Below, in pieces: positions 12,399 to 42,876 of a stretch of DNA of 64,000 bases. The first letter of the stretch is position 1. Every line of letters begins with the position of its first letter. The position numbers and the translations under genes were made by a program. The notes below the pieces were generated by a model. The model was not told the DNA's origin and searched no databases. It saw only the letters and a program-made list of their open reading frames with translations. Source of the DNA: an uncultured Planctomycetales bacterium (GTDB lineage Bacteria; Planctomycetota; PLA2; JAEUHO01); contig CAZPGF010000001.1 of NCBI GenBank assembly GCA_964586025.1, positions 29,544 through 93,543 of the forward strand. The letters run 5' to 3'.

Positions 12399-12400
12399 AC

Positions 12401-14473: not shown

Positions 14474-14544
14474 TCGCCGCGGCGGGCGTGTACCTTCGCC
14501 GAACAGGGGGCGCGGCGACGAGTCGAGCGCTCCGGGAGGGCACG

Positions 14545-15624: not shown

Positions 15625-15783
15625 CGCCCTGAAAAGGCCGGTCGTGGGCCGCGTGTCCACGAATCAGGACGCCTCCCTCCGAGCGACGTGGGGGAGGTCC
15701 GCTCAAGCGCCCTTCGTTCGGCGGCCGATAGGGCCGCGGGTCCGCCGTCCGCCCGGACGGGTCGGAGCACCGGAGGGCGTTCC

Positions 15784-22200: not shown

Positions 22201-22296
22201 GCGGATCCACCTCGCCGTCGCATCGAACTCTTGCCCGTTCGTTGCATTCGACGCAACACCTTGTCGCAGAATGACTTATGACAGAGGCGCTCGATC

Positions 22297-22317
22297 GGCC
22301 TGTCACTTTGACAGGCC
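22297..22317 (+). terminator. perfect inverted repeat GGCCTGTCA-CTT-TGACAGGCC, candidate terminator or operator downstream of the pilin-like cassette
   Basis: 9-bp arms with a 3-nt loop, about 100 nt after the 22200 stop. No U-tract (common in high-GC genomes). Confidence 0.3.
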
Positions 22318-22463
22318 GCCCGGAGGCGGTGGGGGAAACCGTACCAACCGGGACGCGTCCAACAGCGTAGTCAAGCCGGACTGCGATCGCGGGTGTCCAT
22401 CCTCGCCGGACTCCCGCGGCAGCATTCGCCGGGCTCGCCCCGCCTCTGGAGACCCTCCCTTCC

Positions 22464-23255
22464 ATGTCCCTCCCCCTCCCCTCGCAGCCGACTCGAACCG
22501 CCCCCACCCTTCGCCCCCTCCCGCAGTGGGATCGCGTGTTCGATGCGATCGAGCGTGTGCTCCACGCTCAGGGCGTCCACCAGCCCCAGGCGTTGCGCTC
22601 GCCGCGCCTCATCGACGAGGCCCTCGATCCCCGGCTCCTCCCGCACGGTACGATGCTCGTCCTCTCCGAGGCCGAGCGGGTCGCGACCGAAGCGGACATC
22701 GAGGAGACGGTCCGAGACGAACGTGCCGGCGGTTGCGTCCTCGTGACGCTGCCCGCGGTCGAGAAACTCGGCGACCGTGCGAAGGCCTTGCGTGATCTCG
22801 CCGGCGCCGCGGCGACCTTCGGGTTCCACGCCGAATCGCGGCCTCTTCCCGCTCAGCGTCTCGGCCGCGTCCGGCAGGTTCCCTGCCCGGCCGGCCTGTC
22901 GGGTTACCGCTTCCTGCTCGCGGACACCCCGGGCTACCGCGTGGCGTTCGTGCAGCGAAACCTGCCCGGCGGCGGTTGGATCGGTCTTTGGAGCGGGAAT
23001 CCCGCCCTGGTGGGTGAACTGCGGCGCGTGCTCGCCGCGGCGGTCCAGGCGGCCGGCCTGCTGATGCCCGGCGCATCGCCCCGCGTCCCCGAGATCGACG
23101 GCATCGCGGCCGAGGACGAGATCTGGAAGCGGGCGTCGGAACTGCGCGCCTATCGAACCGTCCGCGAGGCCGAACTGCGGGAGATCGCCCGGCAGGCCGC
23201 CTTGCGCGGCGTCCAGCTCCGTCGCGAACGCGACGAGGCGGCACGCTCCGCGTAG
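22464..23255 (+). CDS. hypothetical protein
   Basis: 263-aa ORF with protein-like composition; no family recognised. Confidence 0.45.
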   Translation: MSLPLPSQPTRTAPTLRPLPQWDRVFDAIERVLHAQGVHQPQALRSPRLIDEALDPRLLPHGTMLVLSEAERVATEADIEETVRDERAGGCVLVTLPAVEKLGDRAKALRDLAGAAATFGFHAESRPLPAQRLGRVRQVPCPAGLSGYRFLLADTPGYRVAFVQRNLPGGGWIGLWSGNPALVGELRRVLAAAVQAAGLLMPGASPRVPEIDGIAAEDEIWKRASELRAYRTVREAELREIARQAALRGVQLRRERDEAARSA

Positions 23256-24440: not shown

Positions 24441-24809
24441 TCAGTCGATTCGGATGAGTTCGCCGGGCGCGTTCAGCAAACGATGTCGCGTGGCGACCTC
24501 CAACCAGGTGCCGTCACGACCGCGTCGCAGCACGACGATCGCCAGGGGCACACCGGGTGGGGCTCCGCCGAACGCCCAGCCGATGCGGCTCTCGTCACCC
24601 GGCACGCCGACGACCTCGCGGGTCTCGTCCGCCTCGCGCCACCGGGCGACGACACGCCACTCGTCCGGCACGTTCCATCCCTCGGCGACCCCGGGAGGGA
24701 CGGGGTTCGGGGGCCCGTCCACCGCCACCGCCGGCGGGCGTTTGAGGACGATCACGACGAGTCCGACCACGCCGACCGCGAGCGTTGCGAGTCCGACGAC
24801 GATCGCCAT
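24441..24809 (-). CDS. small membrane-anchored hypothetical protein
   Basis: MAIVVGLATLAVGVVGLVVIVL TM anchor followed by a Pro-rich segment. Confidence 0.3.
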   Translation of the reverse strand: MAIVVGLATLAVGVVGLVVIVLKRPPAVAVDGPPNPVPPGVAEGWNVPDEWRVVARWREADETREVVGVPGDESRIGWAFGGAPPGVPLAIVVLRRGRDGTWLEVATRHRLLNAPGELIRID

Positions 24810-24932
24810 GCGCAGGAACAGGGGGGGACGGTCCGCGCGGCGCACGGGCGCATCCTACGGCCCGCGCGCGGCGCGTCCGCCCCTCGGCGGGCTGTGGCTC
24901 CCGGGGACGGCGTGCGGCTATCTTGCGCCGCG

Positions 24933-26837
24933 ATGGGTCGCCACGACGTCGAGATCACCGAACGCCCCGAGGACCTTCGCCGCTTCGAGGAGCGGCTCGT
25001 CGCCGACGCCGACGCGCTCGAGCGGATGCTGCTCGAGAAACGCTTCGAGACCGGCGTGCGCCGGATCGGATTGGAGCAGGAGTTCTTCCTGGTCGACGAG
25101 CACGGCCGACCGGCCCCGCGCGCGAACGAGGTGCTCAAGGCGCTCGGCGGCGACGGGTCGGTCTACCAGAACGAGCTCGCGCTCTACAACGTCGAGGTCG
25201 CCCTGCCTCCGCGGCCGCTCGGCGGGACGTGCCTGCGCGAGATGGAGGAGGAACTGCGGCTGCACGTCGGGACGATCCGCCGCGCCGCCCGCCCGCACGG
25301 CGTCGATGTCCTCGCCATCGGCATCCTGCCGACGCTCACCTGGGACCACCTGCGCCTCGACTGCATGACCCCGTCGCCGCGCTACGAAGCGTTGAACCGA
25401 CGTGTCCTCGCGATGCGCGGTGGCGAGTTCCGAATCGCGATCCGCGGCGTGGACACCCTCCATGCCACGCACGACAACGTGTTGCTCGAGGCGTTCAACA
25501 CGTCGTTCCAGTTGCACCTTCAGGTGGACCCGGACGAGTTCGCGTCAGTCTACAACGCCATGCAACTGGCGACCGGGGTCGTCTTGGCGGGGGCGGGCAA
25601 CAGCCCGCTTCTGCTCGGCGCGCGGCTTTGGGACGAGACGCGCATCGCCCTGTTCGATCAGTCGATCGACACGCGCACCGACCATCAGTTGAGTCGCGGC
25701 AGCCGCCCGCGGGTGTTCTTCGGCGACGATTGGGTCCGCGGCGGCGTGCTCGACCTGGTCCGCGAGGACATCTCGCGCTTTCGCGTCGTCCTGCCGATGG
25801 ACGACGGCGAGCCGTGGCCGGCCGACGTGCTCGATGCGGGTGGCGTGCCGCAGTTGACGGCCCTCGCGCTGCACAACGGCACGATCTACCGGTGGAACCG
25901 TCCGTGCTATGGCGTGTTCGACGGCGTGCCGCATCTAAGGATCGAGAACCGCCCGCTGCCGGCCGGTCCGACCGCCGTCGACAGTGCCGCCAACGCCGCG
26001 TGGCTCTACGGCCTCACGCTGGGGCTCGCGGCGGAGTTCGGCGACGTGGGCCGTCGGATGCCGTTCCACGACTGCCAGGCCAACTTCCACGACGCGGCCG
26101 CCACCGGGCTGCGCGCGTCGCTGCAGTGGATCGACGGGAAGGCGCGCACGGCGGACGAACTCGCCCTGTTGACGTTGCCGCTCGCCGCGGAGGGCCTGCG
26201 GCGCGCCGGCGTCGACAAGGACGACGGGCACCGGCTCCTCGACGTGGTCGCCGCACGCGTCACCGCCGGTCGCACCGGCGCGCGCTGGCTCGTCGACGGG
26301 TTCAACGGGCTGCGCGACGCGATCCCCAAGGACGAGGCGTTGCAGGTGCTCACGCGCTCCTACATGGAGCGTCAGCGCGGGGGGGCCCCGGTCCACACCT
26401 GGGAGGCGGTCGAGACGCCCGAGCCGACGAATCGCCGCGCCGCCTACGAACGCGTCGGACAGGTGATGACCGCCGACCTGCTCACGGTCCAGGAGGAAGA
26501 CACCGTCACGCTCGCCGAAGCGATGATGCGCTGGGAGGGCATCCGCCACGTGCCCGTCGAGAACGAGGCCGGCACGCTCGTCGGGATGCTCGCGCTGCCG
26601 GAGTTGTTCCAGGCGATGAAGCGCGGCAACGGTCAGCCCGAACGCGGGCTGCGGGTCGGTGAGGTGATGAAGCGGGCGCCGGTCACCGTCGCGCCCGAGA
26701 CGCCGACGCTCGAGGCGATCGGCCTGATGAAGGAACACGGTCTGTCGGCCGTGCCGGTCGTCCGCGACGGCCGCTTGGTCGGCCTGCTCACGGTGACCGA
26801 CTTCCTCACCGTGGTGCAGCGCCTGCTCGAGGGCTGA
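24933..26837 (+). CDS. carboxylate-amine ligase (GCS2 / YbdK-type glutamate-cysteine-ligase family) fused to a C-terminal CBS-domain pair
   Basis: N-terminal region GLEQEFFLVDEHGRP...ELALYNVEVAL matches GCS2. C-terminal ~130 aa has two CBS-like units (VMTADLLTV..., VMKRAPVTV...GLSAVPVV). Confidence 0.75.
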   Translation: MGRHDVEITERPEDLRRFEERLVADADALERMLLEKRFETGVRRIGLEQEFFLVDEHGRPAPRANEVLKALGGDGSVYQNELALYNVEVALPPRPLGGTCLREMEEELRLHVGTIRRAARPHGVDVLAIGILPTLTWDHLRLDCMTPSPRYEALNRRVLAMRGGEFRIAIRGVDTLHATHDNVLLEAFNTSFQLHLQVDPDEFASVYNAMQLATGVVLAGAGNSPLLLGARLWDETRIALFDQSIDTRTDHQLSRGSRPRVFFGDDWVRGGVLDLVREDISRFRVVLPMDDGEPWPADVLDAGGVPQLTALALHNGTIYRWNRPCYGVFDGVPHLRIENRPLPAGPTAVDSAANAAWLYGLTLGLAAEFGDVGRRMPFHDCQANFHDAAATGLRASLQWIDGKARTADELALLTLPLAAEGLRRAGVDKDDGHRLLDVVAARVTAGRTGARWLVDGFNGLRDAIPKDEALQVLTRSYMERQRGGAPVHTWEAVETPEPTNRRAAYERVGQVMTADLLTVQEEDTVTLAEAMMRWEGIRHVPVENEAGTLVGMLALPELFQAMKRGNGQPERGLRVGEVMKRAPVTVAPETPTLEAIGLMKEHGLSAVPVVRDGRLVGLLTVTDFLTVVQRLLEG

Positions 26838-31099: not shown

Positions 31100-32917
31100 A
31101 TGCCCAATCCTCTGCTTGAAATCCGGGGACTCAAGACGTGGTTCCACACCGAGGACCGGATCGTCCGCGCGGTGGACATGGCCTCCGACGTACGGATCAC
31201 GCTGAACGAAGGCCATACGCTCGGTGTCGTCGGCGAGTCGGGCTCCGGCAAGAGCGTCACCGCGATGACGATCATGCAGTTGCTGCCGCCCGAGACCGCG
31301 CGGATCCATGCCGGCGAGGTGTCCTTCCTCGGGCGGGACATCGTCCGCCTGCCGCGTTCGCAGATGCGCGCGATGCGCGGCCGCGACATCGGGATGATCT
31401 TCCAGGAGCCGATGACGTCGCTGAATCCGGTGTTCACAGTCGGCGACCAGGTGATGGAGCCCATCCTTATCCACGAGAAGATCAGTCGTGCCGCAGCGCG
31501 CGAGCGCGTGATCCAGCTGTTCCGCGAGGTGGACATTCCCGACCCGGAACGGCGCATCGACACCTACCCGCACGAGATGTCCGGCGGCCAGAAGCAGCGT
31601 GTGATGATCGCGATGGCCCTGAGCTGCAATCCGAAGCTGCTGATCGCCGACGAGCCGACGACCGCGCTCGACGTGACGATTCAGGCGCAGATCCTCGATC
31701 TGCTGCGACGCCTCCGCGACGAGCGCGGCATGTCGATCCTGTTCATCACGCACGACCTCGGCGTGATCGCAGAGATCGCCGACGACGTCGCCGTGATGTT
31801 CCAGGGGCATCTCGTCGAGTACGGCAACGTCGTGGACATCTTCGGCAACCCCCAGCACCCGTACACCCGAAGTCTCCTGGCGTGCCGTCCCTCGCTCGAC
31901 ACGACTTACAAGCGCCTGCCGACGACGTCGACGTTCATGGACTGGCGTTTGGACGAGGACCATCGACTGATCGTCACGCCGAAGGACGTCAGCCCGGCGG
32001 AACTCGATGCGATCTGCACCCGTGGCCGCGACAAATTGATCGCGCCCGAGGGCGGGCCGTTGCTCTCCGTTCGCGATCTGCGGGTCTGGTTCCCGATCCG
32101 CAAGGGCGTGTTCGGACGCGTCCACGATCACGTCAAGGCGGTGCAGGACGTGGACTTCGACGTGTGGCGCGGGCAGACCCTGGGCCTCGTCGGCGAGTCC
32201 GGCTGCGGCAAGACGACGGCCGGTCGCGCGTTGCTGCGGTTGATCGAGAATAAGAACGGGGTCGAGGTCGGCGGCCAGGCGATCTACGAGGGGCGCGACC
32301 TGTTCCGGATGTCGAACCGCGAGTTCCGGGGGATGCGCCGCCGGATGCAGATCATCTTCCAGGATCCGTACTCGTCGTTGAACCCGCGCATGACGGTCGG
32401 CGACATGATCGCGGAACCGATGGACGTGCACAAGTTGATCCGCTCGCGCTCCGAGCGCACCGATCGCGTGGCGGAACTCCTCGTCGAGGTCGGGCTCAAG
32501 CCCGAACACATGAATCGGTATCCGCACGAGTTCTCCGGCGGTCAGCGCCAGCGCATCTCGATCGCGCGCGCTCTCGCCCTCGAGCCGGAGTTCCTGATCT
32601 GCGACGAGTCGGTCAGCGCGCTGGACGTGTCCGTGCAGGCGCAGGTCTTGAACCTGCTCAAGGACCTGCAGGAAGCGCGGTCGCTGACCTACATCTTCAT
32701 CAGCCACGACCTCTCCGTCGTGAAGTTCATGTCCGACACGATGGCGGTCATGCAGGCCGGCCGGATCGTCGAGATGGGCGTGGCGAGCGAGATCTACCGG
32801 AGCCCCCGCGAGGACTACACCAAGCGTCTGATCGACGCCGTCCCGAGCGACGACATCGAGAAGATCCGCGTTCGTCAAGCCGAGCGCGCCGCGTCCCGCG
32901 TGCCCGCGACCGCGTAG
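31100..32917 (+). CDS. fused tandem ABC ATPase of the oligopeptide/dipeptide (DppD/DppF, YejF/GsiA-like) type; no permease or SBP adjacent
   Basis: Two Walker A sites ([16 protein letters not shown]), two LSGGQ signatures, and the Opp/Dpp-type C-terminal motif ([12 protein letters not shown]). Confidence 0.85.
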
Positions 32918-32930
32918 TTGGAGGCGAGGC

Positions 32931-33203
32931 ATGGACTCCGATCAGGTTCGTCCGCTCGTCGTCACGCTGCAGCCCGGCCGTCACGCGATCTGCGCGTGCG
33001 GGCGCACCGCATCGCCGCCGTTCTGCGACGGACATCACCGCGACACGGAGTTCACGCCCCGCATCGAAGTCGTCGAGGGCATGGCGCGAAACGTCGCGTG
33101 GTGCCGTTGCTTCACCTCGTCGAACGGCCCGTGGTGCGACGGCAGCCACACCGCACTCTGGACGGGCACGGGCCCCGATCCCGACGACGAGGCGACGCGA
33201 TGA
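32931..33203 (+). CDS. CDGSH-type iron-sulfur domain protein (two CDGSH modules)
   Basis: CACGRTASPPFCDGHH and CRCFTSSNGPWCDGSH. Confidence 0.75.
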   Translation: MDSDQVRPLVVTLQPGRHAICACGRTASPPFCDGHHRDTEFTPRIEVVEGMARNVAWCRCFTSSNGPWCDGSHTALWTGTGPDPDDEATR

Positions 33204-33409
33204 ACCCGCCGCCCGGCGAGCGCCGGCTACAGGCGCTCGAGGAGGCGGGCGTGACCCAGGAGCGCGCGCTCGAACGACTCGACGCGGTCGTTCGCGAACG
33301 GGAGGCCGCGCTCGACCGGATCGAACGCCGACTCGCCCTCCTCGAGCGCCGACTCGCCGATCTCCTCGATGCCGCGGCGCCGCCGTACGAGGACGACCTC
33401 CTCGACTGA
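33200..33409 (+). CDS. small coiled-coil hypothetical protein
   Basis: 69 aa, heptad-like LERLDAVVREREAALDRIERRLALLERRLADLL. ATG overlaps the CDGSH stop (ATGA). Confidence 0.35.
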   Translation: MNPPPGERRLQALEEAGVTQERALERLDAVVREREAALDRIERRLALLERRLADLLDAAAPPYEDDLLD

Positions 33410-33553
33410 GCGCCGATTCCATGGGCCGCCCCTGCCGCGCCTGGCGATCCTCTCGCGGCGATTCGGCGTCGCCCCGGAAGCGGCTCCGAGCGTCCTCGCC
33501 CTCGCGCCTTCCCGCGAGGGATCTCGAGCGCGGCCGAGGCGCGGTGCGCTTCG

Positions 33554-34720
33554 TTACCGAGCGAGAGCCCGGGCAAGGTCCGCGATCAGGTCGGACTCGC
33601 TCTCGATACCGACGGAGAGACGGATGAAGCCGTCTTCGATCCCGAGCGCCTTGCGCGCCGCCGCGGGAACGCTGGCGTGGGTCATGATCGCGGGATGCTC
33701 GATCAGGCTCTCCACGCCGCCGAGGCTCTCGGCGAGTGCGGGGATGCGCACGGCCTCCAGGAAGCGGCGCGCGGCGTCCAGGCCGCCGCGCAGCGTGAAC
33801 GAGATCATGCCGCCGAAGCATCGCATCTGTCGCTTTGCGAGCGCGTGCTGCGGATGGCTGGGCAGGCCGGGGTAGATCACCCGTTCGACCTCCGGCCGGG
33901 ACTCGAGGAATCGCGCGATCGCGAGCGCGTTGCGTTCGTGTCGCTCCATGCGGATGCCCAACGTCTTCAGCCCGCGCAGCACGAGGAACGCATCGAGGGG
34001 GCCGGGCACCGCACCGACCGCGTTCTGGAGGAAGGCGAGGCGGGCACCCAGCTCGTCGTCGCGGACGACCAGCGCGCCCCCGACGACGTCGCTGTGGCCG
34101 TTGAGGTACTTCGTGACCGAGTGCAGCACGACGTGGGCGCCGAGGTCGAGCGGTCGCTGCGCGAACGGCGTCGCGAACGTGTTGTCCACGACGACGATCG
34201 CCCCGTGCGCTCGCGTGACGGCGGCGAGCGCCGCGATGTCGAGCACCTTGAGCATCGGGTTGGTCGGCGACTCGAGCCAGACGAGCTTCGTCGCGGGCGT
34301 CAGGGCGGCCTCGAGTGCGCCGGGCTTGGTCAGATCGGCCGCCGTGAATCGCACGCCGTGGCGCGCGACGACCTTGTCGAATTGGCGGAACGTACCGCCG
34401 TAGACGTCGTCGGAGTGAACGACGTGGTCGCCCGCGTCGAGCAGGTGCATCACGGCATCGGTTGCCGCGAGGCCCGACGCGAAGCAGAGCCCGCGCGCAC
34501 CGCCTTCGAGCGCGGCGAGGCACGCCTCGAGCGCGTCGCGGGTCGGGTTGCGCGTCCTCGCGTACTCGAACCCCCGGTGCACGCCCGGGCTCTCCTGCGC
34601 ATACGTGGAGTTGAGGTAGACGGGCGTCATCAGGGCACCCGTCGTCGGGTCGGGCGCCTGGCCGGCGTGGATCGCCAGCGTGTCGAAACCGAGCGGCGTG
34701 TCGCCGGCGGCCGGCTTCAC
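33554..34720 (-). CDS. cystathionine gamma-lyase / gamma-synthase (PLP-dependent Cys/Met metabolism enzyme)
   Basis: YxRxxNPT-like (YARTRNPTRDALE) and SVTKYLNGHSDVVGG (PLP Lys) motifs. GTG at 34720. Confidence 0.85.
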   Translation of the reverse strand: MKPAAGDTPLGFDTLAIHAGQAPDPTTGALMTPVYLNSTYAQESPGVHRGFEYARTRNPTRDALEACLAALEGGARGLCFASGLAATDAVMHLLDAGDHVVHSDDVYGGTFRQFDKVVARHGVRFTAADLTKPGALEAALTPATKLVWLESPTNPMLKVLDIAALAAVTRAHGAIVVVDNTFATPFAQRPLDLGAHVVLHSVTKYLNGHSDVVGGALVVRDDELGARLAFLQNAVGAVPGPLDAFLVLRGLKTLGIRMERHERNALAIARFLESRPEVERVIYPGLPSHPQHALAKRQMRCFGGMISFTLRGGLDAARRFLEAVRIPALAESLGGVESLIEHPAIMTHASVPAAARKALGIEDGFIRLSVGIESESDLIADLARALAR

Positions 34721-35703
34721 GACGCGGCTCCCTCGTCGAAGAAGCCGTTCGCACGCATCCAGTCGTCGGAGAAGAACTTGGAGATGTACGCGCGACCACC
34801 GTCGGGAAGCGGTACGAGGATCGTCTTGCCGGGACCCCACTCGCGGGCGAGCGTCGCCGCGACATGGACCGCGGCGCCCGACGAACCGCCGGCGAAGATG
34901 CCCTCCTCGCGCGCGAGCCGGCGCGCCATCGCGAAGGCCTGCGTGTCGTCGACCTGCCGCACGTCGTCCAGCAGCGCGAGATCCATCGCGCCGCAGACCA
35001 TGTCCTCGCCGATGCCTTCCACCTTGTAGGGGTGCGGCGTCGTGAGCTGTTTCGTGTGGAACAGGTCGTGGTAGATGCTGCCCACCGGATCGACGCCGAC
35101 CAGTCGAATGTCGGGATCCTGTTCCTTCAGGTAGCGCCCCGCGCCGCTCATCGTGCCGCCGGTCCCGAGGCCCGCGACGAACGCGTCCAGACGGCCCTCG
35201 AGTTGTCGCCAGATCTCCGGTCCCGTCGACCGATAGTGCGCCTCGACGTTGTCGCGGGAGTGGTACTGGTTCACGTAGAGGGAGTCGGGGATCTCGCCGG
35301 CGAGGCGCTTCGCGGTGGAGTAGTACGACTCCGGCGAGTCCGCCGGAACGGCCGTCGGCGTGATGACCACGCGCGAACCGAACGCGCGCAACGTGTCCTG
35401 CTTCTCCTTCGACATCTTGTCCGGCATCGTGAACACCGTCGGGTGACCGCGCACCGCGGCAGCCATCGCCAGACCGACGCCGGTGTTGCCGCTCGTGTTC
35501 TCGACGATCGTCGCGCCGGGCTTCAGGGCCCCCGACGCGCTCGCCTTGTCGAGGATGTGGCGCGCCATCCGGTCCTTGATCGAACCGCCCGGATTCATGA
35601 ACTCGAGCTTCACGAGCACGGTGGCGTCGTTCGGACCGACGACCCGATTGAGCCGCACGATCGGCGTGTTGCCGATCGCGGAAAGCACGTTGTCGTGGAT
35701 CAC
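34717..35703 (-). CDS. cysteine synthase / cystathionine beta-synthase family PLP enzyme
   Basis: GNTPIVRL, KLEFMNPGGSIKDR and GNTGVGLA motifs. GTG 35703 is preceded by GGGAGG. GTGA overlap with the downstream lyase. Confidence 0.85.
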   Translation of the reverse strand: MIHDNVLSAIGNTPIVRLNRVVGPNDATVLVKLEFMNPGGSIKDRMARHILDKASASGALKPGATIVENTSGNTGVGLAMAAAVRGHPTVFTMPDKMSKEKQDTLRAFGSRVVITPTAVPADSPESYYSTAKRLAGEIPDSLYVNQYHSRDNVEAHYRSTGPEIWRQLEGRLDAFVAGLGTGGTMSGAGRYLKEQDPDIRLVGVDPVGSIYHDLFHTKQLTTPHPYKVEGIGEDMVCGAMDLALLDDVRQVDDTQAFAMARRLAREEGIFAGGSSGAAVHVAATLAREWGPGKTILVPLPDGGRAYISKFFSDDWMRANGFFDEGAAS

Positions 35704-35747
35704 GGAGGGCCTCCCTGGGACGGCCGCCGAGAATACGGCGCCCGCGG

Positions 35748-37055
35748 TCAGATAGCGCTTGCGGCCCACGCGACGAGCGCGGCCTCGTCCCGGAACGACT
35801 CGAACGAACCGTCGACGAGGCGTTTGCCGTGCCAGCCACCGTCCGCTTCCACGGTGACGACGACGCGCACGCCGACGCGATCCGCGTAGCGCATCTGTTG
35901 CGCGTGCTTCCGGTCCTCGGGATAGACCTCGGTCGGGAGCCCGGCCCGGCGCAGCGCCGCGGCGACCGAGAAGGCGCGCGCGAGTCCCGCCGCGCCGGGG
36001 TGCACCACGAGGACGGCGCTCGAGGCGCCCGCGGCGCCGTCGGCGCCGAGCGCCTCGAGGGCGTCCAGGAGGCGCGTGATCCCGATGGAGCAGCCGACGC
36101 CGGGCAGGTGCGACTTGGTGTAGAGGCTCGCCAGATCGTCGTACCGCCCCCCGCTGCCGACGCTGCCGATCGACGGCAGCGCGTCGAGCTGCGCCTCGAA
36201 GACGAGGCCCGTGTAGTAGTCGAGTCCGCGCGCGATGCTCGGATCCACGCGCAGCGCGTTGGGTCGCACCCCCGCGGCGGCGACGAGTTCGAGCACGGTG
36301 CGGAGGTTCTCGAGCCCCGCCGCGCCGGCCGGCTCGGTCGGGTCGAGCGCCGCGGCGAGACGGGAGAGGACCTCGTCGGCGGCGCCCTCGGGGCGCGTGA
36401 CCTCGAGGAGCATCGCGGCGCCCTCCGGGGTGGCGCCGGCCGCGATCAGTTCGTTCCGCACGATCTCCTCACCGAGCTTCTCGCGCTTGTCGAGAACGCG
36501 CAGCGCGGCGGTCGGCGCGAGGCCCGGAAGGCGCGTCGTCACGAGCGAGGAGAGGACGCGGCGATCGTTCACCCGCAGGGTCACCGCGCCGACTCCGAGC
36601 GCGTCGTACGCAGACGCGAGCAGCACGAGGATCTCCGCGTCGGCGGCGGCCCCGACCGGACCGATCAGGTCCGCGTCGCACTGGAGGAACTCCCGGGCCC
36701 GTCCGCGCTGCGGGCGTTCACCGCGCCAACAGGTGCCGATGTGCGATCGGCGGAAGGGGAAGACGAGTTCGCTCTCGTGCTCGGCGACGAAACGCGCGAG
36801 CGGTACCGTCAGGTCGAAACGAAGAGCGACCTCGCGTCCGCCCTTGTCCTGGAACGCGAACAGCTCCTTGTCGCTGTCTTCGCCGCCCTTGCCCTTCAGG
36901 ATCTCGGCGTACTCGAGCGCCGGCGTCTCGATCGGCGGATAGCCATGCGCGCGGAAGACGTCCTCCAAGGCGCGGACCATGGTCCGCTGGCGCAGGGCGC
37001 GCGACGGCATCACGTCGCGGAATCCCTTCAGCGTTCGGGGAGCGATCAGGGCCAT
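35748..37055 (-). CDS. hisS: histidine--tRNA ligase
   Basis: Class II aaRS motifs (LKGFRD, FQDKGGREVALRFDLTVPLAR, GGRYDDL) and anticodon-binding C-terminus. Confidence 0.9.
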   Translation of the reverse strand: MALIAPRTLKGFRDVMPSRALRQRTMVRALEDVFRAHGYPPIETPALEYAEILKGKGGEDSDKELFAFQDKGGREVALRFDLTVPLARFVAEHESELVFPFRRSHIGTCWRGERPQRGRAREFLQCDADLIGPVGAAADAEILVLLASAYDALGVGAVTLRVNDRRVLSSLVTTRLPGLAPTAALRVLDKREKLGEEIVRNELIAAGATPEGAAMLLEVTRPEGAADEVLSRLAAALDPTEPAGAAGLENLRTVLELVAAAGVRPNALRVDPSIARGLDYYTGLVFEAQLDALPSIGSVGSGGRYDDLASLYTKSHLPGVGCSIGITRLLDALEALGADGAAGASSAVLVVHPGAAGLARAFSVAAALRRAGLPTEVYPEDRKHAQQMRYADRVGVRVVVTVEADGGWHGKRLVDGSFESFRDEAALVAWAASAI

Positions 37056-37063
37056 GTCCTACC

Positions 37064-38629
37064 TCACACGATGGGGAGCGGCGGCTCGAGCCCGGCCGCA
37101 CGGAGCAGCGATCCGTCGTCGATGGCGCGCTTCGCCGCGACGAGCGCGTCGTCCCACGGACGATCGGCGTCGCGGAAGGGCACCGCGGCGCGCACGACGG
37201 ACTTCGCCGCGGCGGTCCGCGGCGCGGGCGCGAAGGGCCGCAGGTCGATCGCCTGGCACGCGACGAGAACCTCGATCGCCAGGACGGACTCGACCAGGTC
37301 GAGGACGTCCTCCGTGCGGCGCGCGGCGATCGGCGCCATGCTGACGTGGTCCTCGATCCCGGCCCCCGTGACGATGCTGTCGGCGCTCGCCGGGAAACAG
37401 AGCTGCTTGCTCTCGGACACCTGCGCGGCGGCCACGTACTGCGGAATCATGAAGCCGCTGTTGAGTCCCGCCTCCGGGACGAGGTACGCGGGAAGGCCCT
37501 CGTTCAGTTTCGGATCGACGAGCGTCGCGGTGCGCCGCTCGCTGATGCTGCCGAGCTCGTGGACCGCGAGACGCAGGTGGTCGAGGGGCAGGGCGATCGG
37601 TTCGCCGTGGAAGTTCCCCCCGCTCACGATGCGCCCGTCGAGCACGAGCGGGTTGTCCGTCACCGCATCGATCTCGCGCTCGAGCGCGCCGCGGACGTAG
37701 GCGATCGCGTCGGCGACCGCGCCGTGAACCTGCGGGGCGCACCGCGTGCCGTAGGCGTCCTGCGGCGCCGTGCGCTTGCCCGGGAACCGGTCCGCCGGCG
37801 CGCCGACCAGACGACTTCCGGCGACGAGCGAGCGTATGCGGCGCGCCGAGGCGACTTGTCCGCGGTGACCGCGCGCGCGGTGCAGGGCGGGATCGAGCGC
37901 GTCCCGTCGCGCCGCGAGCGCCTCCATCGTGAGGGCCGCGGCGAGGTCGGCGAGCAGGACGGCGCGCTCGGCTCGCGCGAGCGCTCGGAGTCCGATCGCG
38001 AGACTCACCTGCATCCCGTTGATCAGCGCGAGCCCTTCCTTCGCGGCGAGCGCGACCGGTTCGAGTCCGGCCTCGCGCAGCGCGTCGCGCGCGGGCATCC
38101 GGCGGCCCGCGACGCGCACCGTGCCGAGACCGAGGAGGGGCAGCGCGAGAAAGGCGAGGGGCGCCAGATCACCGCTCGCGCCGACGCTGCCGCGCGACGG
38201 GACGTCGGCGACGATCCCCGCCTCGAACAGGCGGATCATGGCGTCGAGCGTCGTGCGTCGGATCCCGCTCGAACCTCGGGCGAGAGCGTGGATGCGGAGC
38301 AGCCACGCGAGTCGAACGGTGGCGTCGGGAAGCGGCGGACCGTCGCCGAAGGCGTGACTCGCGATCAGGCGTTCCTGGAGCACGGAGACGTCGTCGGAGC
38401 CGACCGCGCGGTCCGCGTTGCTCCCGAGGCCCGTCGTCACCCCGTAGACGCGCTCGCCGCCGCGAACGGCGTCGGCGATCCGTCGCGCCGACGCGTCGAT
38501 GCGCCCGGCCGCACCGGGGGCGAACGCGAGGCGGCGCGGCGAGGCGATCGCCTCGAGCGCGTCGGCGGCGTCGAGTCGGCCGCCGAGCAGGAGCGCCTGC
38601 GCGCGGAGGGGGGGCTTCGGGCGCGCCAT
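37064..38629 (-). CDS. hutH: histidine ammonia-lyase (MIO-dependent HAL/PAL family)
   Basis: MIO-forming GSVGASGDLAPLA motif. The Ser-His selectivity pair (LIASHAFG) is as in HALs. Ends 8 nt before the hisS start. Confidence 0.8.
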   Translation of the reverse strand: MARPKPPLRAQALLLGGRLDAADALEAIASPRRLAFAPGAAGRIDASARRIADAVRGGERVYGVTTGLGSNADRAVGSDDVSVLQERLIASHAFGDGPPLPDATVRLAWLLRIHALARGSSGIRRTTLDAMIRLFEAGIVADVPSRGSVGASGDLAPLAFLALPLLGLGTVRVAGRRMPARDALREAGLEPVALAAKEGLALINGMQVSLAIGLRALARAERAVLLADLAAALTMEALAARRDALDPALHRARGHRGQVASARRIRSLVAGSRLVGAPADRFPGKRTAPQDAYGTRCAPQVHGAVADAIAYVRGALEREIDAVTDNPLVLDGRIVSGGNFHGEPIALPLDHLRLAVHELGSISERRTATLVDPKLNEGLPAYLVPEAGLNSGFMIPQYVAAAQVSESKQLCFPASADSIVTGAGIEDHVSMAPIAARRTEDVLDLVESVLAIEVLVACQAIDLRPFAPAPRTAAAKSVVRAAVPFRDADRPWDDALVAAKRAIDDGSLLRAAGLEPPLPIV

Positions 38630-38632
38630 CGG

Positions 38633-40699
38633 CTACGGGGGCGTCGCGAGCAACGCGACCTGCTCCACGAGATGCCGAGCCCACCATGCCATGTCGACCT
38701 GGCCGACGATGCGCACCGAGTCCACGTTCAGGTGACCACCGTCGGTGAACAGCCCGACGCGCGCGGAGGCCACGCCGCTGCCGTCGTCACCGACGGCCTG
38801 TCCCTCGAGCCGCACGCGATCCGACTCGCCCTGCATCACGCCGCGCGTCAGGCGCCCCGAGCGCTCGAACTCGAGGCGCAGCCGGTCGCCGTTGCGCAAC
38901 GACGATTCCGGGGACTCGGCGAACTTCACGAACCCGTGCTGGTCCGCGTCGGCGGCGGCCCAGACGCCTTCGCCGACGAGCCACAGCAGGTGACCGGACT
39001 GCGGGCGCGCGGCGTCACCCTTCTTCAGTTTGAAGCGGGTGTTGTTCAGGTGGAACAGCAGCGCACGGTAGCGCGAACCCTCTTCCACGGCGAGGATGCC
39101 GAAGTCACGCGCGACCTCGGCATGGACGGCGGCCTCGACCCGAACGTCGTCGGCGAACACGAGACGATGGAAGAGGCCGGTGCCGAGACGCATCGTGACG
39201 CTGCCTTCCTTCCACGCCGCCTCGATCGGTTGGTCGGTCGCGAACGGTTGCTCGACCGTGAAGTCCTCCGCGAACTGCGCCCGTTGGTCGAACTCGTAGC
39301 GCACCTCGAGCTTGCCACGCTCGAACTTGGCGTCGCCGTGGAGGATCACGTGCGGGCCGTCCCGCCCCGCGCGCGCCCATCGTTCGGCCGCCTCGAGGGC
39401 GGGCCGATGCAGGCGAGGCAGCGTCGCCTCGCCGTGCAGGTCGAGCAGGCCGCGATAGGCCTTGGCCGCATCCGCGTAGCGAGCGGCGAGCAGGTCGGCA
39501 TGCGCCGTCCGCCACGCCTTGCGCGCGATCGCGTCCGGGTCGCTCGCGTCGGGCGGCGGTCCGGGGTCGCGGCCCTCCGACGCCCCCGGCGACGCAGCCG
39601 GACTCGGCGGCGCATCAGGGGGCGGACGTCGCGAGTCGGGGGCGCGAGGTGCCGTGTCCGGCACCTTCTCGTACAGGTGGCGGCGAGCCGACGCGATCAA
39701 CGGCTCGAGGGTCGGTGCGAACGACGCGGGGAAGCGGTCGAGCGCCTCGACGAGTCGGACGTACGCGTCGCGAGGCGCATGCACCACGAGCGGCGCCACG
39801 TCGCGGAGGAACACATCGAGCGAGACGGCCGCCTCGCGCGCGATGCGCTCGCGCAACGGGGTCGCCTCGCTCGCGTCGATCACTCCGGCGAAGCGATGTT
39901 CGTGACGCGCGATGATGTCGAACGCGCGGGCGAACTGCCCGGCGGCGACCGCGTCGTCGACGGCCGCCCCGATCCGGGCGTGCTCCTCCCGGGCGAGGCG
40001 CTCGTGCAGTTCGTTCCAGCGCGCGCGCAGGGCCGCGACGACGTCGGGCTCGCGGGAGCGCTGGATCGCACCGCGCAGTCGATCGAGTTCGGCCGTGATC
40101 GACGCGATGTCGCTCGCGTGGGTGCGGGCGCGGGCGTCGAGTTCGAGCAAGGATCGCGTCTCCTCGGAGATCTCCGTCGGGCCTCCCGCTCGCGGTTCGG
40201 GAAACTCGCGCGCGAGGACCGAGTCCGCTCGACGCGCCGCCTGCAGATGGTCCACGGCGCGCGTCACCGCGTAGAGAACGATGCCGGCGGCCAATAGGGC
40301 GAGCGGCCAGAGCGGTAGCGCGCGGGCCCGCGGGGGCGGCGGGCGCACCGCCTCGCGCGACGGGGGCCGGCTCGGTGGGGGGGGCGCGGCGGGACCGCTC
40401 GGGCCGCGGAAATACGCCTTCTCGCCGCCGATCCCCAACTCCGCGCCGTCGCCGAGCGGCGTGCCGTCGGCCGGTGCGCCGTTGACGAGGACGCCCTCGG
40501 CACCGGGCAACGCCCGGGCGACGTGCTCGTCCCCCTCGCGAGCGATGACGACCGCCGCCTTCGGGAATGGGGTGGGCGCGGCCTCGAGGCCGCCGCGCGC
40601 CGCGGGGCCGACGAACGTCGCCCCTTCGAGGAGGTCGTACTCGAGCAAGCCGAGCGGCGACGGCAGCAGCAGACGGGCTTCTTCTCGAGCGGCTGCCAC
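38633..40699 (-). CDS. FHA-domain membrane protein (N-terminal FHA, Pro-rich linker, one TM helix, large C-terminal domain)
   Basis: N-terminal ~100 aa FHA-like (ATFVGPAARG...VLVNGAPADGTPLGDGAELGIGGEKAYF). TM helix ALPLWPLALLAAGIVLYAV. Ends 3 nt before hutH. Confidence 0.6.
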   Translation of the reverse strand: MAAAREEARLLLPSPLGLLEYDLLEGATFVGPAARGGLEAAPTPFPKAAVVIAREGDEHVARALPGAEGVLVNGAPADGTPLGDGAELGIGGEKAYFRGPSGPAAPPPPSRPPSREAVRPPPPRARALPLWPLALLAAGIVLYAVTRAVDHLQAARRADSVLAREFPEPRAGGPTEISEETRSLLELDARARTHASDIASITAELDRLRGAIQRSREPDVVAALRARWNELHERLAREEHARIGAAVDDAVAAGQFARAFDIIARHEHRFAGVIDASEATPLRERIAREAAVSLDVFLRDVAPLVVHAPRDAYVRLVEALDRFPASFAPTLEPLIASARRHLYEKVPDTAPRAPDSRRPPPDAPPSPAASPGASEGRDPGPPPDASDPDAIARKAWRTAHADLLAARYADAAKAYRGLLDLHGEATLPRLHRPALEAAERWARAGRDGPHVILHGDAKFERGKLEVRYEFDQRAQFAEDFTVEQPFATDQPIEAAWKEGSVTMRLGTGLFHRLVFADDVRVEAAVHAEVARDFGILAVEEGSRYRALLFHLNNTRFKLKKGDAARPQSGHLLWLVGEGVWAAADADQHGFVKFAESPESSLRNGDRLRLEFERSGRLTRGVMQGESDRVRLEGQAVGDDGSGVASARVGLFTDGGHLNVDSVRIVGQVDMAWWARHLVEQVALLATPP

Positions 40700-40768
40700 A
40701 GGCGCCGATTCTCCTCACAACACGTCACGGGACCGTGACGCCGGGCGGGCGCATCGTACGCTGTCCCC

Positions 40769-40951
40769 ATGTCCGACGAAGCGACGCCCACTGCCCACGG
40801 ATCGGCATCCATCGGCTGGGGCCGCTGGGCGCTCGGGCTGTGGGTCGTCCTGATCGCGCTCGCCGCCGCGGGGGTACTCCTCGGCTGGGACGACCTGCGG
40901 CTGGCCCTCGACGTCGATCGCGAGATCCATCTCGCGAAGCCCGCTTCGTGA
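40769..40951 (+). CDS. very small hydrophobic ORF (questionable)
   Basis: 60 aa with a TM-like LGLWVVLIALAAAGVLLGW; no other support. Confidence 0.15.
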   Translation: MSDEATPTAHGSASIGWGRWALGLWVVLIALAAAGVLLGWDDLRLALDVDREIHLAKPAS

Positions 40952-40995
40952 CCCGTGGCGCTCCCTTCGCGTGGAGGGGTCGGAGGGTCGCGGCC

Positions 40996-41820
40996 ATGCG
41001 CGCGGCGAGCCATGCGGCGGCCTTGTTCGACTGGCTGTTCCCGCCACGTTGCGTCGCCTGCGCCGCTCTCGCCTGGGACGACCCGCACGTCGGCCTGTGC
41101 GCCCCCTGCGCCGAGGGGCTCGGCGAGAACGAGGCGCGCTGCCGTCGCTGCGGGCGGGTCCGACCTCGCGACGACGGGGGGCTCGGGTGCGAGCGGTGCA
41201 TCGGGCCGGACGCCGTGCCCGATGCGCTCGGGCGCCCCGACCTGTCCCGGACGTCCGGAGGCGAGGCCCTGCGCCGGGACGCGATCAGCGGGGTGGTGGC
41301 GACGTGGCGGTATCGGGGCACCGCGGGCGTTCTGGTGCGGCGCATGAAGTTCGCGCGACTGCCGGGGGCGGCCCGACCCCTGGTCGCGGGGATGGCCGCG
41401 GCGACGCGGCGTGCCGGGGTGCCCGGCGATCTGGTCGTTCCCCTGCCCCTGCACGCGACCCGCCGCCTCGCCCGCGGTTTCGACCAGGCCGCCCTGCTCG
41501 CGCGCGGCGTCGCGCGGGAACTCGACCTCGCCTGCCCCGCCTTCGGTCTGCGCCGCGTTCGCGCCACCGCGCCCCAGGCGATGCGCCGGGGGCGCACGCG
41601 CTCCCGTGGACTCGCGGGCAGCTTCGAGGCGGTGCCGGCGGTCGTGCGCGGCCGTTCGGTATTGCTCGTCGACGACGTGCTGACGACGGGCGCGACGGCA
41701 CGCGCGGCGGCACGTGCCCTGCGGCGCGCGGGCGCCGCCTCGGTCCATGTCGTCGTCGCGTGCCGCTCCGAGGCCCGCCATGCGTTGCGGACGACCCGCC
41801 GAAGGAGCCCATCGACGTGA
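40996..41820 (+). CDS. ComF-family protein (Zn-finger plus phosphoribosyltransferase domain)
   Basis: LFPPRCVAC...C zinc finger and PRTase motif VLLVDDVLTTGAT. Confidence 0.7.
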   Translation: MRAASHAAALFDWLFPPRCVACAALAWDDPHVGLCAPCAEGLGENEARCRRCGRVRPRDDGGLGCERCIGPDAVPDALGRPDLSRTSGGEALRRDAISGVVATWRYRGTAGVLVRRMKFARLPGAARPLVAGMAAATRRAGVPGDLVVPLPLHATRRLARGFDQAALLARGVARELDLACPAFGLRRVRATAPQAMRRGRTRSRGLAGSFEAVPAVVRGRSVLLVDDVLTTGATARAAARALRRAGAASVHVVVACRSEARHALRTTRRRSPST

Positions 41821-42152
41821 ACGAGTCCGAACTGCCGGTCGTCCTCGTCGCCGGCCGCTTCGTCGACGAGATCGCCGCGAGCGAGGTCGCGGCCGCGCTG
41901 AACGCCTGGTTTGCGTGGATCCTCGGCGGATCCGCCGACGTTCCGCCGACCGCGTTCGAGGCGTTCGGCGTCGCGACGTCGAACTATGCGTGGCGCCTCG
42001 ACGAAGACGTCGACTGGGAGATGGGGCCGCACGCGCGCGCCGTCGATGCGGAGGTGCGCATCGAACTGGAGACCCACGAGACGCACCTCGCTCTCGCGGG
42101 CCTCCTGCGCCGACTCGGCGCGCGGACGACACGGATCATGCGATCCGAATGA
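41817..42152 (+). CDS. hypothetical protein
   Basis: GTG overlaps the comF stop (GTGA). 111 aa, protein-like. Confidence 0.35.
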   Translation: MNESELPVVLVAGRFVDEIAASEVAAALNAWFAWILGGSADVPPTAFEAFGVATSNYAWRLDEDVDWEMGPHARAVDAEVRIELETHETHLALAGLLRRLGARTTRIMRSE

Positions 42153-42876
42153 CCTCCGCGAGACGGCGCTTCGTCGTCGCGATCGCCTGCGGCGAGCGGT
42201 CCCCGGCGATCCACGATCGACCGAGCCGCTCGGCCGCGATGCACGTCGTGCCGCTGCCGCAGCACGGATCCAACACGACGCCGTCCGGCGGTGCGGACGA
42301 CGCGACGATCCGCTCGAGCAATGCGAGCGGCTTCTGCGTCGGATAGCCGGTTCGCTCCCGTGCGTGGTTGTTGATCGCGGGGATGTCCCACACGTCGGGG
42401 GCCTTCTTGTCGAGCCCGGCCATGCGCCGCGAACGGGCCGGAACGCGGGCTGCCTCGAACCAGTGTCGGGACGGATCGCGGGCGTACCAGAGGAGCGTGT
42501 CGTGCTTGCGCGGCCACCAACGCGGGCCGCTGCCGCCGAGTCCGTACATCCACACGATCTCGTTGAGGAACGCGTCCGCCCCGAACACCTCGTCGAGCGC
42601 GACCTTGACGTAGTGGACGGACCGCCAGTCGAGGTGCACGTAGACGGAGCCGGTCGGCTTCAACCGCGTTGCCAGCGGCGCGAGAAACTCCATCAGCGCG
42701 GCGACGAAGGTACGGATCCCGCCGGGCCAGCGGTCGTCGAACGCCCCGTGGTCGCGCCCGGTGAAGAACGGCGGATCGACGTAGGCGAGGTCGATGCTCT
42801 CCTCGGGAAGCGACGCGACGAGGTCCGCCGCGGCGGACTCGACGAGCCGGCAGAAGCGGCCCGTCGTCCCCGTCAC
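42136..42876 (-). CDS. beta-class DNA methyltransferase (N6-adenine or N4-cytosine), orphan
   Basis: Motif IV DLAYVDPPF precedes motif I LDPCCGSGTT (beta-class order). No restriction-endonuclease candidate adjacent. GTG overlaps the upstream stop (GTGA). Confidence 0.7.
   Translation of the reverse strand: MTGTTGRFCRLVESAAADLVASLPEESIDLAYVDPPFFTGRDHGAFDDRWPGGIRTFVAALMEFLAPLATRLKPTGSVYVHLDWRSVHYVKVALDEVFGADAFLNEIVWMYGLGGSGPRWWPRKHDTLLWYARDPSRHWFEAARVPARSRRMAGLDKKAPDVWDIPAINNHARERTGYPTQKPLALLERIVASSAPPDGVVLDPCCGSGTTCIAAERLGRSWIAGDRSPQAIATTKRRLAEVIRIA

Follow-up and report, generated by a model that had tools for sequence, protein, structure and literature searches.

In the 64-kb stretch of DNA analysed here (64,000 nucleotides of contig CAZPGF010000001.1 from an uncultured Planctomycetales bacterium, hereafter the window), the gene for a histidine ammonia-lyase (HAL, gene hutH) lies directly in front of the gene for a histidyl-tRNA synthetase (HisRS, gene hisS), and both are preceded by the gene for a membrane protein, here called X. 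The order X-hutH-hisS was found in every related Planctomycetota locus that is long enough (about 17 loci). Because the arrangement is met again in all related loci of sufficient length, the compared gene orders indicate that it is more than chance, and it is these three genes only that are conserved across the clade, an uncultured group of high-GC Planctomycetota. Our preferred reading, for which we see an even chance, is that the triad forms a clade-specific operon that sets a fixed ratio of HAL to HisRS on one histidine pool, where the purpose of the coupling is what we infer.

In the window the triad is followed by two further genes on the same strand. The resulting string of five co-directional genes on the minus strand (33554-40699) was defined with a codon-usage gene map and by direct reading of the junctions:

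38633-40699, minus strand: X, a clade-specific membrane protein of 688 amino acids (aa), with a GTG start
37064-38629, minus strand: hutH, encoding HAL, 521 aa
35748-37055, minus strand: hisS, encoding HisRS, 435 aa
34717-35703, minus strand (the longest open reading frame starts at 35769): a pyridoxal-phosphate (PLP) enzyme resembling cystathionine beta-synthase (CBS-like enzyme), 328 aa from the likely GTG start at 35703
33554-34720, minus strand: a cystathionine gamma-lyase or gamma-synthase (CGL/CGS), 388 aa

The stop codon of X (TAG) is followed by ccg and then by the ATG of hutH, a junction of 3 nt, and the stop codon of hutH (TGA) is followed by ggtaggac and then by the ATG of hisS, a junction of 8 nt. 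A preliminary description of this DNA had named the five genes and stressed their tight spacing, and both points are borne out by the gene map, the reading of the junctions and the family scores given below. The coupling of hutH to hisS that it had proposed also holds up as an arrangement, which is kept across a Planctomycetota clade despite rearranged flanks. The view that all five genes act as a single unit is not supported: behind hisS, the CBS-like/CGL pair is seen in the window and in the nearest relative (L081), and nowhere else among the loci compared. On this comparison the pair is an add-on downstream of, and outside, the conserved core.

Gene order within the clade and beyond it

A scan for HAL with one genome per species yielded eight loci from Planctomycetota metagenome-assembled genomes (MAGs) at 62-67% identity, and 72 other loci, mostly from Gaiellales and unclassified Actinomycetota, with some from Clostridia, Synergistota, Bacteroidota and Fusobacteriota. 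Further loci were collected through homologs of X, HAL and HisRS on long contigs (L081-L084, L103 and L104, two of which are on contigs of 2.3 and 3.1 Mb), and three metagenome contigs were added (L089, L091 and L093). The triad is present in L001-L007, L081-L084, L089, L091, L103 and L104. In L008 and L093 the same order is seen up to the contig end. Across these loci the HisRS proteins are 55-75% identical, and the X proteins 34-59% identical, to those of the window. Among the homologs listed, 35 HAL and HisRS clusters of the clade are found on equal-sized contigs and are thus probably encoded on the same contigs.

Upstream of X the relatives carry ComF, dUTPase/ABC or PPIase genes. Downstream of hisS the triad is followed by the CBS-like/CGL pair, by a CDGSH-glyoxalase-SlyX set, by a TetR gene or by unknown genes, and in L082, L083, L084, L089 and L103 the triad is intact with both flanks rearranged. 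The gap between hutH and hisS is 8 nt in the window and ranges from -4 to 115 nt in the relatives (-4, -4, -4, -1, 4, 8, 24, 26, 38, 44, 69, 84 and 115 nt, with the window included). With gaps this short, there is scarcely space, if any, for hisS to have its own promoter in most of the genomes.

In one locus (L006, 191-3058) HAL and HisRS read as a single open reading frame (ORF) of 955 aa, in which an indel in the C-terminal tail of HAL removes the stop codon; the contig has a coverage of 4.2x. A protein of fusion length was absent among the 120 best HAL and the 120 best HisRS homologs. A genuine HAL-HisRS fusion was rejected on these grounds, and the single ORF is probably an assembly error. 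The HisRS of L003 (11625-12906) is matched in two frames (11625-12524 and 12496-12906), an apparent frameshift that is probably an error of long-read assembly.

Linkage of hutH and hisS was also observed outside the clade. In the Gaiellaceae (L067, 9109-18489) and in about 40 related Gaiellales loci, a string of eight genes, ftcD-hutH-hutU-hutI-(131 aa)-MBL-hisS-aspS (MBL, metallo-beta-lactamase), is joined by 4-nt overlaps or by gaps of 4-11 nt. As in the window, the histidine-catabolic genes and hisS are co-directional with overlapping or very short junctions. The Gaiellaceae string differs from the window in that it contains the full hut pathway, four genes between hutH and hisS, no homolog of X and another type of HisRS (about 30% identity), and the linkage of hut genes with hisS is here an independent one. 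Among the HALs outside the clade, the closest group (54% identity; L099, 6701-9572, and L100, 1080-3951) has convergent genes for HAL and for a 40%-identical HisRS, with a 3' overlap of about 23 nt, and in an unclassified MAG (L071, 8481-11539) the genes for HisRS (39% identity) and HAL (47%) are divergent and 44 nt apart. The four groups with such a linkage, the clade included, are deeply separated, since their HisRS proteins share a mutual identity of only 26-40%. No HisRS gene was found near HAL in 18 loci of Clostridia, Synergistota, Bacteroidota and Fusobacteriota, nor in L101 and L102.

Canonical FHA proteins and Ser/Thr kinases are encoded within two to five genes of HAL in L099 (4699-5667 and 13012-15453), L101 (3225-6400) and L102 (1570-4745). 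These loci represent two other HAL lineages. The FHA proteins have the architectures FHA+PatA_N, Zn-ribbon+FHA and FHA+Trans_reg_C, and in genomes rich in Ser/Thr kinases their closeness to HAL may be due to chance.

The three proteins of the triad

The HAL of the window scores above the cut-offs of both TIGR01225 (548.2 bits, cut-off 539.15) and NF006871 (569.7 bits, cut-off 524). Its 4-methylidene-imidazole-5-one (MIO) triad, A151-S152-G153 in the motif GASGD at 150-154, aligns with A142-S143-G144 of the Pseudomonas putida HAL (1GKM), and the residues Y53, H83, N195, Q277, Y280, R283, F329 and E414 of 1GKM are all identical in the window enzyme (Y62, H92, N204, Q290, Y293, R296, F340 and E426). 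Since all His-specific residues are present, the substrate should be histidine and not tyrosine or phenylalanine, and the protein should be a genuine histidine ammonia-lyase and no aminomutase. Models of aminomutases, tyrosine ammonia-lyase (TAL) and phenylalanine ammonia-lyase (PAL) score far below their cut-offs, and an identity as TAL, PAL, aminomutase or ergothionase was rejected on the scores and the active-site residues. The preliminary description had left room for the specificity of a TAL, PAL or aminomutase; set against these enzymes, the protein carries every HAL-specific residue, including the His and the Glu that bind the imidazole ring. The HALs of the clade stand sharply apart from the others, with an identity of at least 59% inside the clade and at most 55% outside, and with bit scores that fall from 554 to 458.

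The first enzyme is the one found in canonical hut operons (Pseudomonas hutUHIG with HutC, Bacillus hutPHUIGM), and the window HAL keeps all the residues of P. putida HutH. Unlike those operons, the locus lacks hutU, hutI, hutG/ftcD, a transporter and a regulator of the HutC or HutP type, both in the window and in the flanks of the relatives, and hutH lies between a membrane-protein gene and hisS. Pfam scans of nearly all of the approximately 45 genes on the codon-usage map revealed no urocanase, imidazolonepropionase, formiminotransferase or formiminoglutamase domain in the 64-kb window, and no GntR or HutP regulator domain. No match to HutU, HutI or FtcD was obtained in the window or in L001-L008 by tblastn with Gaiellaceae queries. 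Likewise, in about 17 relatives the 8-10 kb around the triad contain no hutU, hutI or formiminotransferase gene, and none is listed in L081-L084, L103 and L104. The tblastn and Pfam scans of the window thus agree with the earlier view that, with no hutU, hutI or hutG nearby, this is a non-canonical setting for hutH.

HisRS exceeds the cut-off of TIGR00442 (368.7 bits, cut-off 286.75) and remains under that of the HisZ model TIGR00443 (204.7 bits, cut-off 271.65). Motif 2 (WRGERPQRGRAREFLQCD), the histidine-binding ARGLDYYTG and motif 3 (GGRYD...GVGCSIGITR) are intact and align with 3net, 6nhi and human HisRS. The anticodon-binding domain gives a weak match to PF03129 (23.1 bits, cut-off 21, residues 349-403), and the homologs carry PF03129 as well. 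With the HisZ score under the cut-off, the motifs intact and the anticodon-binding domain present, an identity as HisZ or as a non-catalytic HisRS paralog was rejected. The enzyme is classed by its sequence as the archaeal/eukaryote-like type with intact catalytic motifs, because the best matches among solved structures are those of Nostoc (3net), Elizabethkingia (6nhi) and the human cytoplasmic HisRS.

The HisRS proteins of the clade are named histidine--tRNA ligase by NCBI. The closest HisRS outside the clade (50% identity; L085/L086, on a TARA contig) is encoded by a stand-alone gene flanked by ubiA and a gene of the AP-endonuclease family, with no HAL nearby. Both this stand-alone outgroup relative and the core genes that surround the window hisS fit a housekeeping ortholog, and the linked hisS is probably the ordinary housekeeping copy.

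Two known systems invite comparison. In HisZ-HisG, a HisRS paralog acts as the histidine-sensing subunit of ATP-phosphoribosyltransferase, and a HisRS-fold protein is likewise genetically tied to an enzyme of histidine metabolism. The window protein differs from HisZ in being a full synthetase with an anticodon-binding domain, above the hisS and under the HisZ cut-off; its partner is degradative, whereas HisG is biosynthetic, and the window pair is known from gene order alone. With hisS-aspS and other operons of housekeeping aminoacyl-tRNA synthetases the window shares a hisS that encodes an intact class II HisRS and is part of a multi-gene operon in a housekeeping region. It differs from them in that the upstream partner catabolizes the synthetase's own amino acid, and no T-box or other Rfam leader was detected.

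Protein X has no match in Pfam or NCBIfam. The seven homologs that were found are all hypothetical proteins, and homologs were seen only in the X-hutH-hisS context. An AlphaFold model of the full-length protein, built on the seven homologs (mean pLDDT 74), has an all-beta domain at the N-terminus (residues 9-98), then a long hydrophobic helix that starts near residue 131, a helical stretch and, at the C-terminus, a beta-sandwich (residues 456-668). Three parts of the protein could be assigned:

40406-40675, minus strand: FHA-fold domain, residues 9-98 (model and Foldseek)
40241-40309, minus strand: predicted transmembrane helix, residues 131-153 approximately, LPLWPLALLAAGIVLYAVTRAV (hydrophobic stretch in the translation)
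38696-39334, minus strand: C-terminal beta-sandwich of the legume-lectin/ConA-like type, residues 456-668 (Foldseek against the PDB)

When residues 1-107 were modelled alone (pLDDT 82, pTM 0.72), the top 50 Foldseek matches in the PDB were all FHA domains (best E 8e-4, TM 0.54-0.69), including those of GarA, FhaA, EmbR, OdhI and YscD. The modelled N-terminal domain has an FHA fold, at the level of the fold only. Pfam FHA models (PF00498 or PF16697) did not match at E<=10 with either the whole protein or its N-terminal 133 aa, a profile search of the PDB reached FhaA only at an E-value of 0.15-1, and a Pfam-level assignment was accordingly rejected. Of the earlier naming of X as an FHA membrane protein, the fold stands, supported by the model and by Foldseek, and membership of the Pfam family does not.

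The canonical contacts of FHA domains with phosphothreonine (Gly-Arg, Ser-x-x-His and Asn-Gly) were then compared with X. An hhalign alignment with the Pfam-verified FHA protein of L099 covers residues 62-94 and places Glu68 opposite the canonical Asn, and where the canonical Arg, Ser and His are expected, a gap-free extension by inspection beyond that range gives Pro32, Pro46 and Ala49. Among the invariant columns of the X family in this domain there is no His and no Asn. The phosphothreonine pocket thus appears not to be conserved, and the alignments do not support the binding of phosphothreonine that had been proposed for X, together with kinase-linked control.

In the model the helix that follows extends from 131 to 162. 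The C-terminal beta-sandwich, for which Foldseek ranks legume lectins and the C-terminal domains of thrombospondin highest (E about 3e-7), shows the strongest conservation within the X family and presumably lies outside the cytoplasm. The same layout of an N-terminal cytoplasmic FHA fold, a single transmembrane helix and an extracytoplasmic domain is found in YscD/EscD of type III secretion, a membrane-anchored FHA fold without a canonical phosphopeptide pocket, in line with the presence of YscD among the fold matches of X. In contrast to YscD/EscD, X has no secretion-system context, its C-terminus consists of a helical region and a lectin-like sandwich, and there is no relationship at the sequence level.

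Readings of the hutH-hisS linkage

If the triad is an operon, hisS would probably be co-transcribed with hutH and X, and in several genomes it would be translationally coupled to hutH. HAL and HisRS would then be produced at a constant ratio, their common promoter would have to remain active at all times, since hisS is essential, and both enzymes would draw on the same pool of free histidine. Characterised HisRS enzymes have a micromolar Km for histidine and characterised HALs a millimolar Km. With such values the charging of tRNA would be served first, and HAL would act as an overflow valve and a source of ammonia that needs no regulator of the HutC or HutP type. Speculatively, X and the small membrane protein encoded divergently from it (see below) may anchor or modulate HAL and HisRS at the membrane; any interaction of X would probably be phospho-independent, because its FHA-fold domain is without a phosphothreonine pocket. 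In the window genome and its nearest relative the CBS-like/CGL pair would probably be part of the same transcript. Further use of urocanate would depend on hutU and hutI genes that are unlinked to the operon.

Several points speak against an operon with this purpose. Promoters may be present inside hutH or in the spacers of 69-115 nt in L081, L082 and L003. The logic of the overflow valve is drawn from kinetic values of the enzymes of other organisms. The convergent (L099, L100) and divergent (L071) arrangements of hutH and hisS are not explicable by co-transcription, which may not be the selected feature, and X is tied to HAL and HisRS by gene order alone.

A frozen accident is a possible, though rather unlikely, explanation. 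X and hutH would have been inserted upstream of the essential and constitutive hisS in the ancestor of the clade, piggy-backing on its expression without any functional link, and the order would have persisted through descent, and also because any break would separate hisS from its promoter. Part of the conservation is indeed vertical inheritance, as the synteny extends to ComF, DNA methylase, AsmA and RecJ in several relatives, and the hisS of the outgroup has different neighbours. Planctomycete genomes are known for their unclustered pathway genes, and a lone hutH is unremarkable there. The MBL-hisS part of the Gaiellaceae string resembles the usual actinobacterial neighbourhood, with the hut genes simply located upstream. 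An accident would however not be expected to leave the triad unbroken while both flanks were rearranged, as seen in the five loci L082, L083, L084, L089 and L103, nor to bring HAL and HisRS together in four lineages and four configurations with HisRS proteins that are only 26-40% identical. In addition, the 4-nt overlaps of stop and start codons in several genomes point to translational coupling.

It is doubtful that HAL has a non-catabolic role in a clade without hutU and hutI, where ammonia would be released and urocanate would be the end product, destined to be excreted, to serve in signalling or UV screening or to act as an electron acceptor. The missing hutU, hutI and formiminotransferase genes around the triad fit such a role, as does the tight and separate grouping of the HALs of the clade. 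These genes may, however, lie elsewhere in the genome; the enzyme is a typical HAL, and the approximately 50%-identical HAL of the Gaiellaceae sits in a full hut operon.

We are also sceptical of a broader view, in which the proximity of hutH and hisS is a selected linkage that arose repeatedly in at least four deep lineages and would reflect a so far unrecognised tie, regulatory or physical, between the opening step of histidine breakdown and the charging of tRNA-His. By a rough estimate for a genome of 4 Mb, about 0.5% of positions would place a given gene within 10 kb of hisS, and three to four independent cases in about ten sampled lineages are unlikely to arise by chance, although the pattern was noticed post hoc. 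Such a coupling could take the form of a HAL-HisRS complex, or HisRS could control HAL; X and other FHA-fold proteins would then serve as adaptors independent of phosphorylation.

It is very unlikely that HisRS, or HisRS with bound histidine, binds and regulates HAL in a HisZ-like manner, with X maybe acting as a membrane scaffold via its FHA-fold domain. The HisZ-HisG system is a precedent for physical coupling of this kind. Junctions of -4, -1, 4 and 8 nt, of the translational-coupling type, typically join genes whose products are made at a fixed stoichiometric ratio, and the adjacency is kept in several orientations. Against this, the single 955-aa ORF of L006, which is the only hint of such an interaction, goes back to an indel near the end of HAL, in a contig of 4.2x coverage, fusion lengths are lacking among the 240 best homologs, and HisRS keeps all its catalytic motifs and looks like a normal synthetase.

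Finally, it is highly improbable that, as the preliminary description had it, a phosphothreonine-binding FHA membrane protein places the five-gene string under Ser/Thr-kinase control of amino-acid flux: although X has an FHA fold, FHA proteins of the GarA/OdhI type are a precedent in the control of glutamate metabolism, canonical FHA proteins and Ser/Thr kinases lie a few genes from HAL in L099 and L101/L102, and the Pfam scan placed a Ser/Thr kinase gene in the window (12 kb away, the nearest one), the domain has no Pfam FHA match, carries Pro, Pro, Ala and Glu at the canonical Arg, Ser, His and Asn positions with no invariant His or Asn, the CBS-like/CGL pair occurs in no relative except one, and kinase and FHA genes are so numerous in such genomes that proximity is weak evidence.

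The enzymes of the string are ordinary members of known families, and the CBS-like/CGL pair is already known. What is unusual is a conserved operon of an aminoacyl-tRNA synthetase and an enzyme that degrades its own amino acid, with a leading gene predicted to encode a membrane protein that is specific to the clade and whose FHA domain is degenerate. To our knowledge, operons that join an aminoacyl-tRNA synthetase gene with the gene for an enzyme degrading the same amino acid have not been described, and a full-text literature search found no published description of a hutH-hisS pairing or of a link between HAL and FHA. If the coupling is functional, it would represent a regulator-free split of one amino-acid pool between translation and catabolism, which may typify slow-growing, poorly regulated environmental bacteria, and it would provide a first functional context for the clade-specific membrane protein. 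If it is not, the triad is a clean example of an essential gene that locks its upstream neighbours in place. In both cases the genes can be annotated without difficulty, as hutH, hisS, a short CBS-like enzyme and CGL/CGS.

Leader of X, downstream pair and neighbouring genes

Two features lie upstream of X:

40700-40768, minus strand: divergent intergenic region and 5' leader of X (sequence reading)
40769-40951, plus strand: gene for a small single-pass membrane protein of 60 aa, divergent from X and containing WGRWALGLWVVLIALAAAGVLLGWDDLRLALDVDR

The leader of X contains a -10-like TACGAT (40758-40753) within CGTACGATGC, a motif that is found upstream of X in the window, L081, L002, L003 and L004, and GAGGAG precedes the GTG start. 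We infer a putative promoter at this position. After the TACGAT motif comes a perfect palindrome of 8 bp, CGTCACGG-tc-CCGTGACG (40740-40723), which was rejected as a conserved operator as it is present in the window only and is not kept in the relatives. A scan of the string for sigma-70 consensus promoters gave zero sites and a terminator scan gave no terminator-like site inside the string, results that say little at a G+C content of 71%. An Rfam scan of 32000-42500 revealed no riboswitch, T-box or other leader, with only one snoRNA match at chance level, and no leader with His codons was visible in the 5' region of X. A riboswitch, T-box or attenuator in the string was rejected on these two results.

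ORFs of similar sequence to the small divergent gene are found at the same position in L003, L008, L081, L083 and L084, and the gene calls list small ORFs at the divergent position in L081, L083, L084, L103 and L104. Across the compared loci the protein is a single-pass membrane protein of 57-79 aa, and its gene is kept next to X in most relatives, also in L084 and L103, where ComF is absent.

Of the two downstream genes, the first encodes a PLP enzyme that matches PF00291 (262 bits), with the PLP lysine in GGSIKDR. Its best NCBIfam match is the CBS core model TIGR01137 (419 bits over model positions 1-324 of 457, under the cut-off), and no equivalog cut-off was passed. The enzyme is closer to the catalytic core of cystathionine beta-synthase than to CysK and has no Bateman or heme domain, the protein being only 328-350 aa long. 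The start of the longest ORF (35769) would overlap hisS by 22 nt and was rejected in favour of the GTG at 35703, which leaves a spacer of 44 nt behind hisS. This GTG is the likely start, with a product of 328 aa, because it has GGGAGG 6 nt 5' of it, because it gives an N-terminus (IHDNVLSAIGNTP) typical of the enzyme family and because the homolog in L081 has 326 aa. The second gene encodes a protein matching PF01053 (506 bits) and PRK07811 (545, cut-off 513), with the PLP lysine in SVTKYLNGH, and its start overlaps the stop of the preceding gene in GTGA. Together the two look like a short bacterial reverse-transsulfuration pair, a familiar arrangement in which the direction (CGL versus CGS) is not readable from the sequence. 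The mccA-mccB genes of Bacillus subtilis and the mycobacterial cbs-metB genes have the same order, in which the gene for a short CBS/CysK-family enzyme overlaps, stop codon with start codon, that for a CGL/CGS-family enzyme; the window pair differs from these in lying directly behind hisS.

In L081 a SlyX gene and a CDGSH zinc-finger gene (17468-17952) are located downstream of CGL on the opposite strand, whereas in the more distant relatives the SlyX/CDGSH genes directly follow hisS on the same strand. This suggests that the CBS-like/CGL pair was inserted and that the neighbouring SlyX/CDGSH block was inverted. An ORF of 69 aa (33200-33409, plus strand) is found in the window at the position of the SlyX/CDGSH genes of L081.

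The G+C content is about 71% throughout the window. Pfam scans that covered most of its other genes identified core genes: pyrBI, parA, truD, gyrA, rsmG, mazG, an M50 protease gene, dut and an ABC ATPase gene, and further comF, a DNA methylase gene, asmA, recJ, selB, ksgA, dnaG and rpoD. Besides these, five co-directional ORFs without a Pfam match (386, 433, 1373, 336 and 263 aa) are located at 14464-23255 on the plus strand, among which the genes for the 433-, 1373- and 336-aa products overlap one another. A protein of 784 aa encoded at 24483-26837 (plus strand) combines a domain of glutamate-cysteine-ligase family 2 (GCS2) with C-terminal tandem CBS domains, an unusual architecture.

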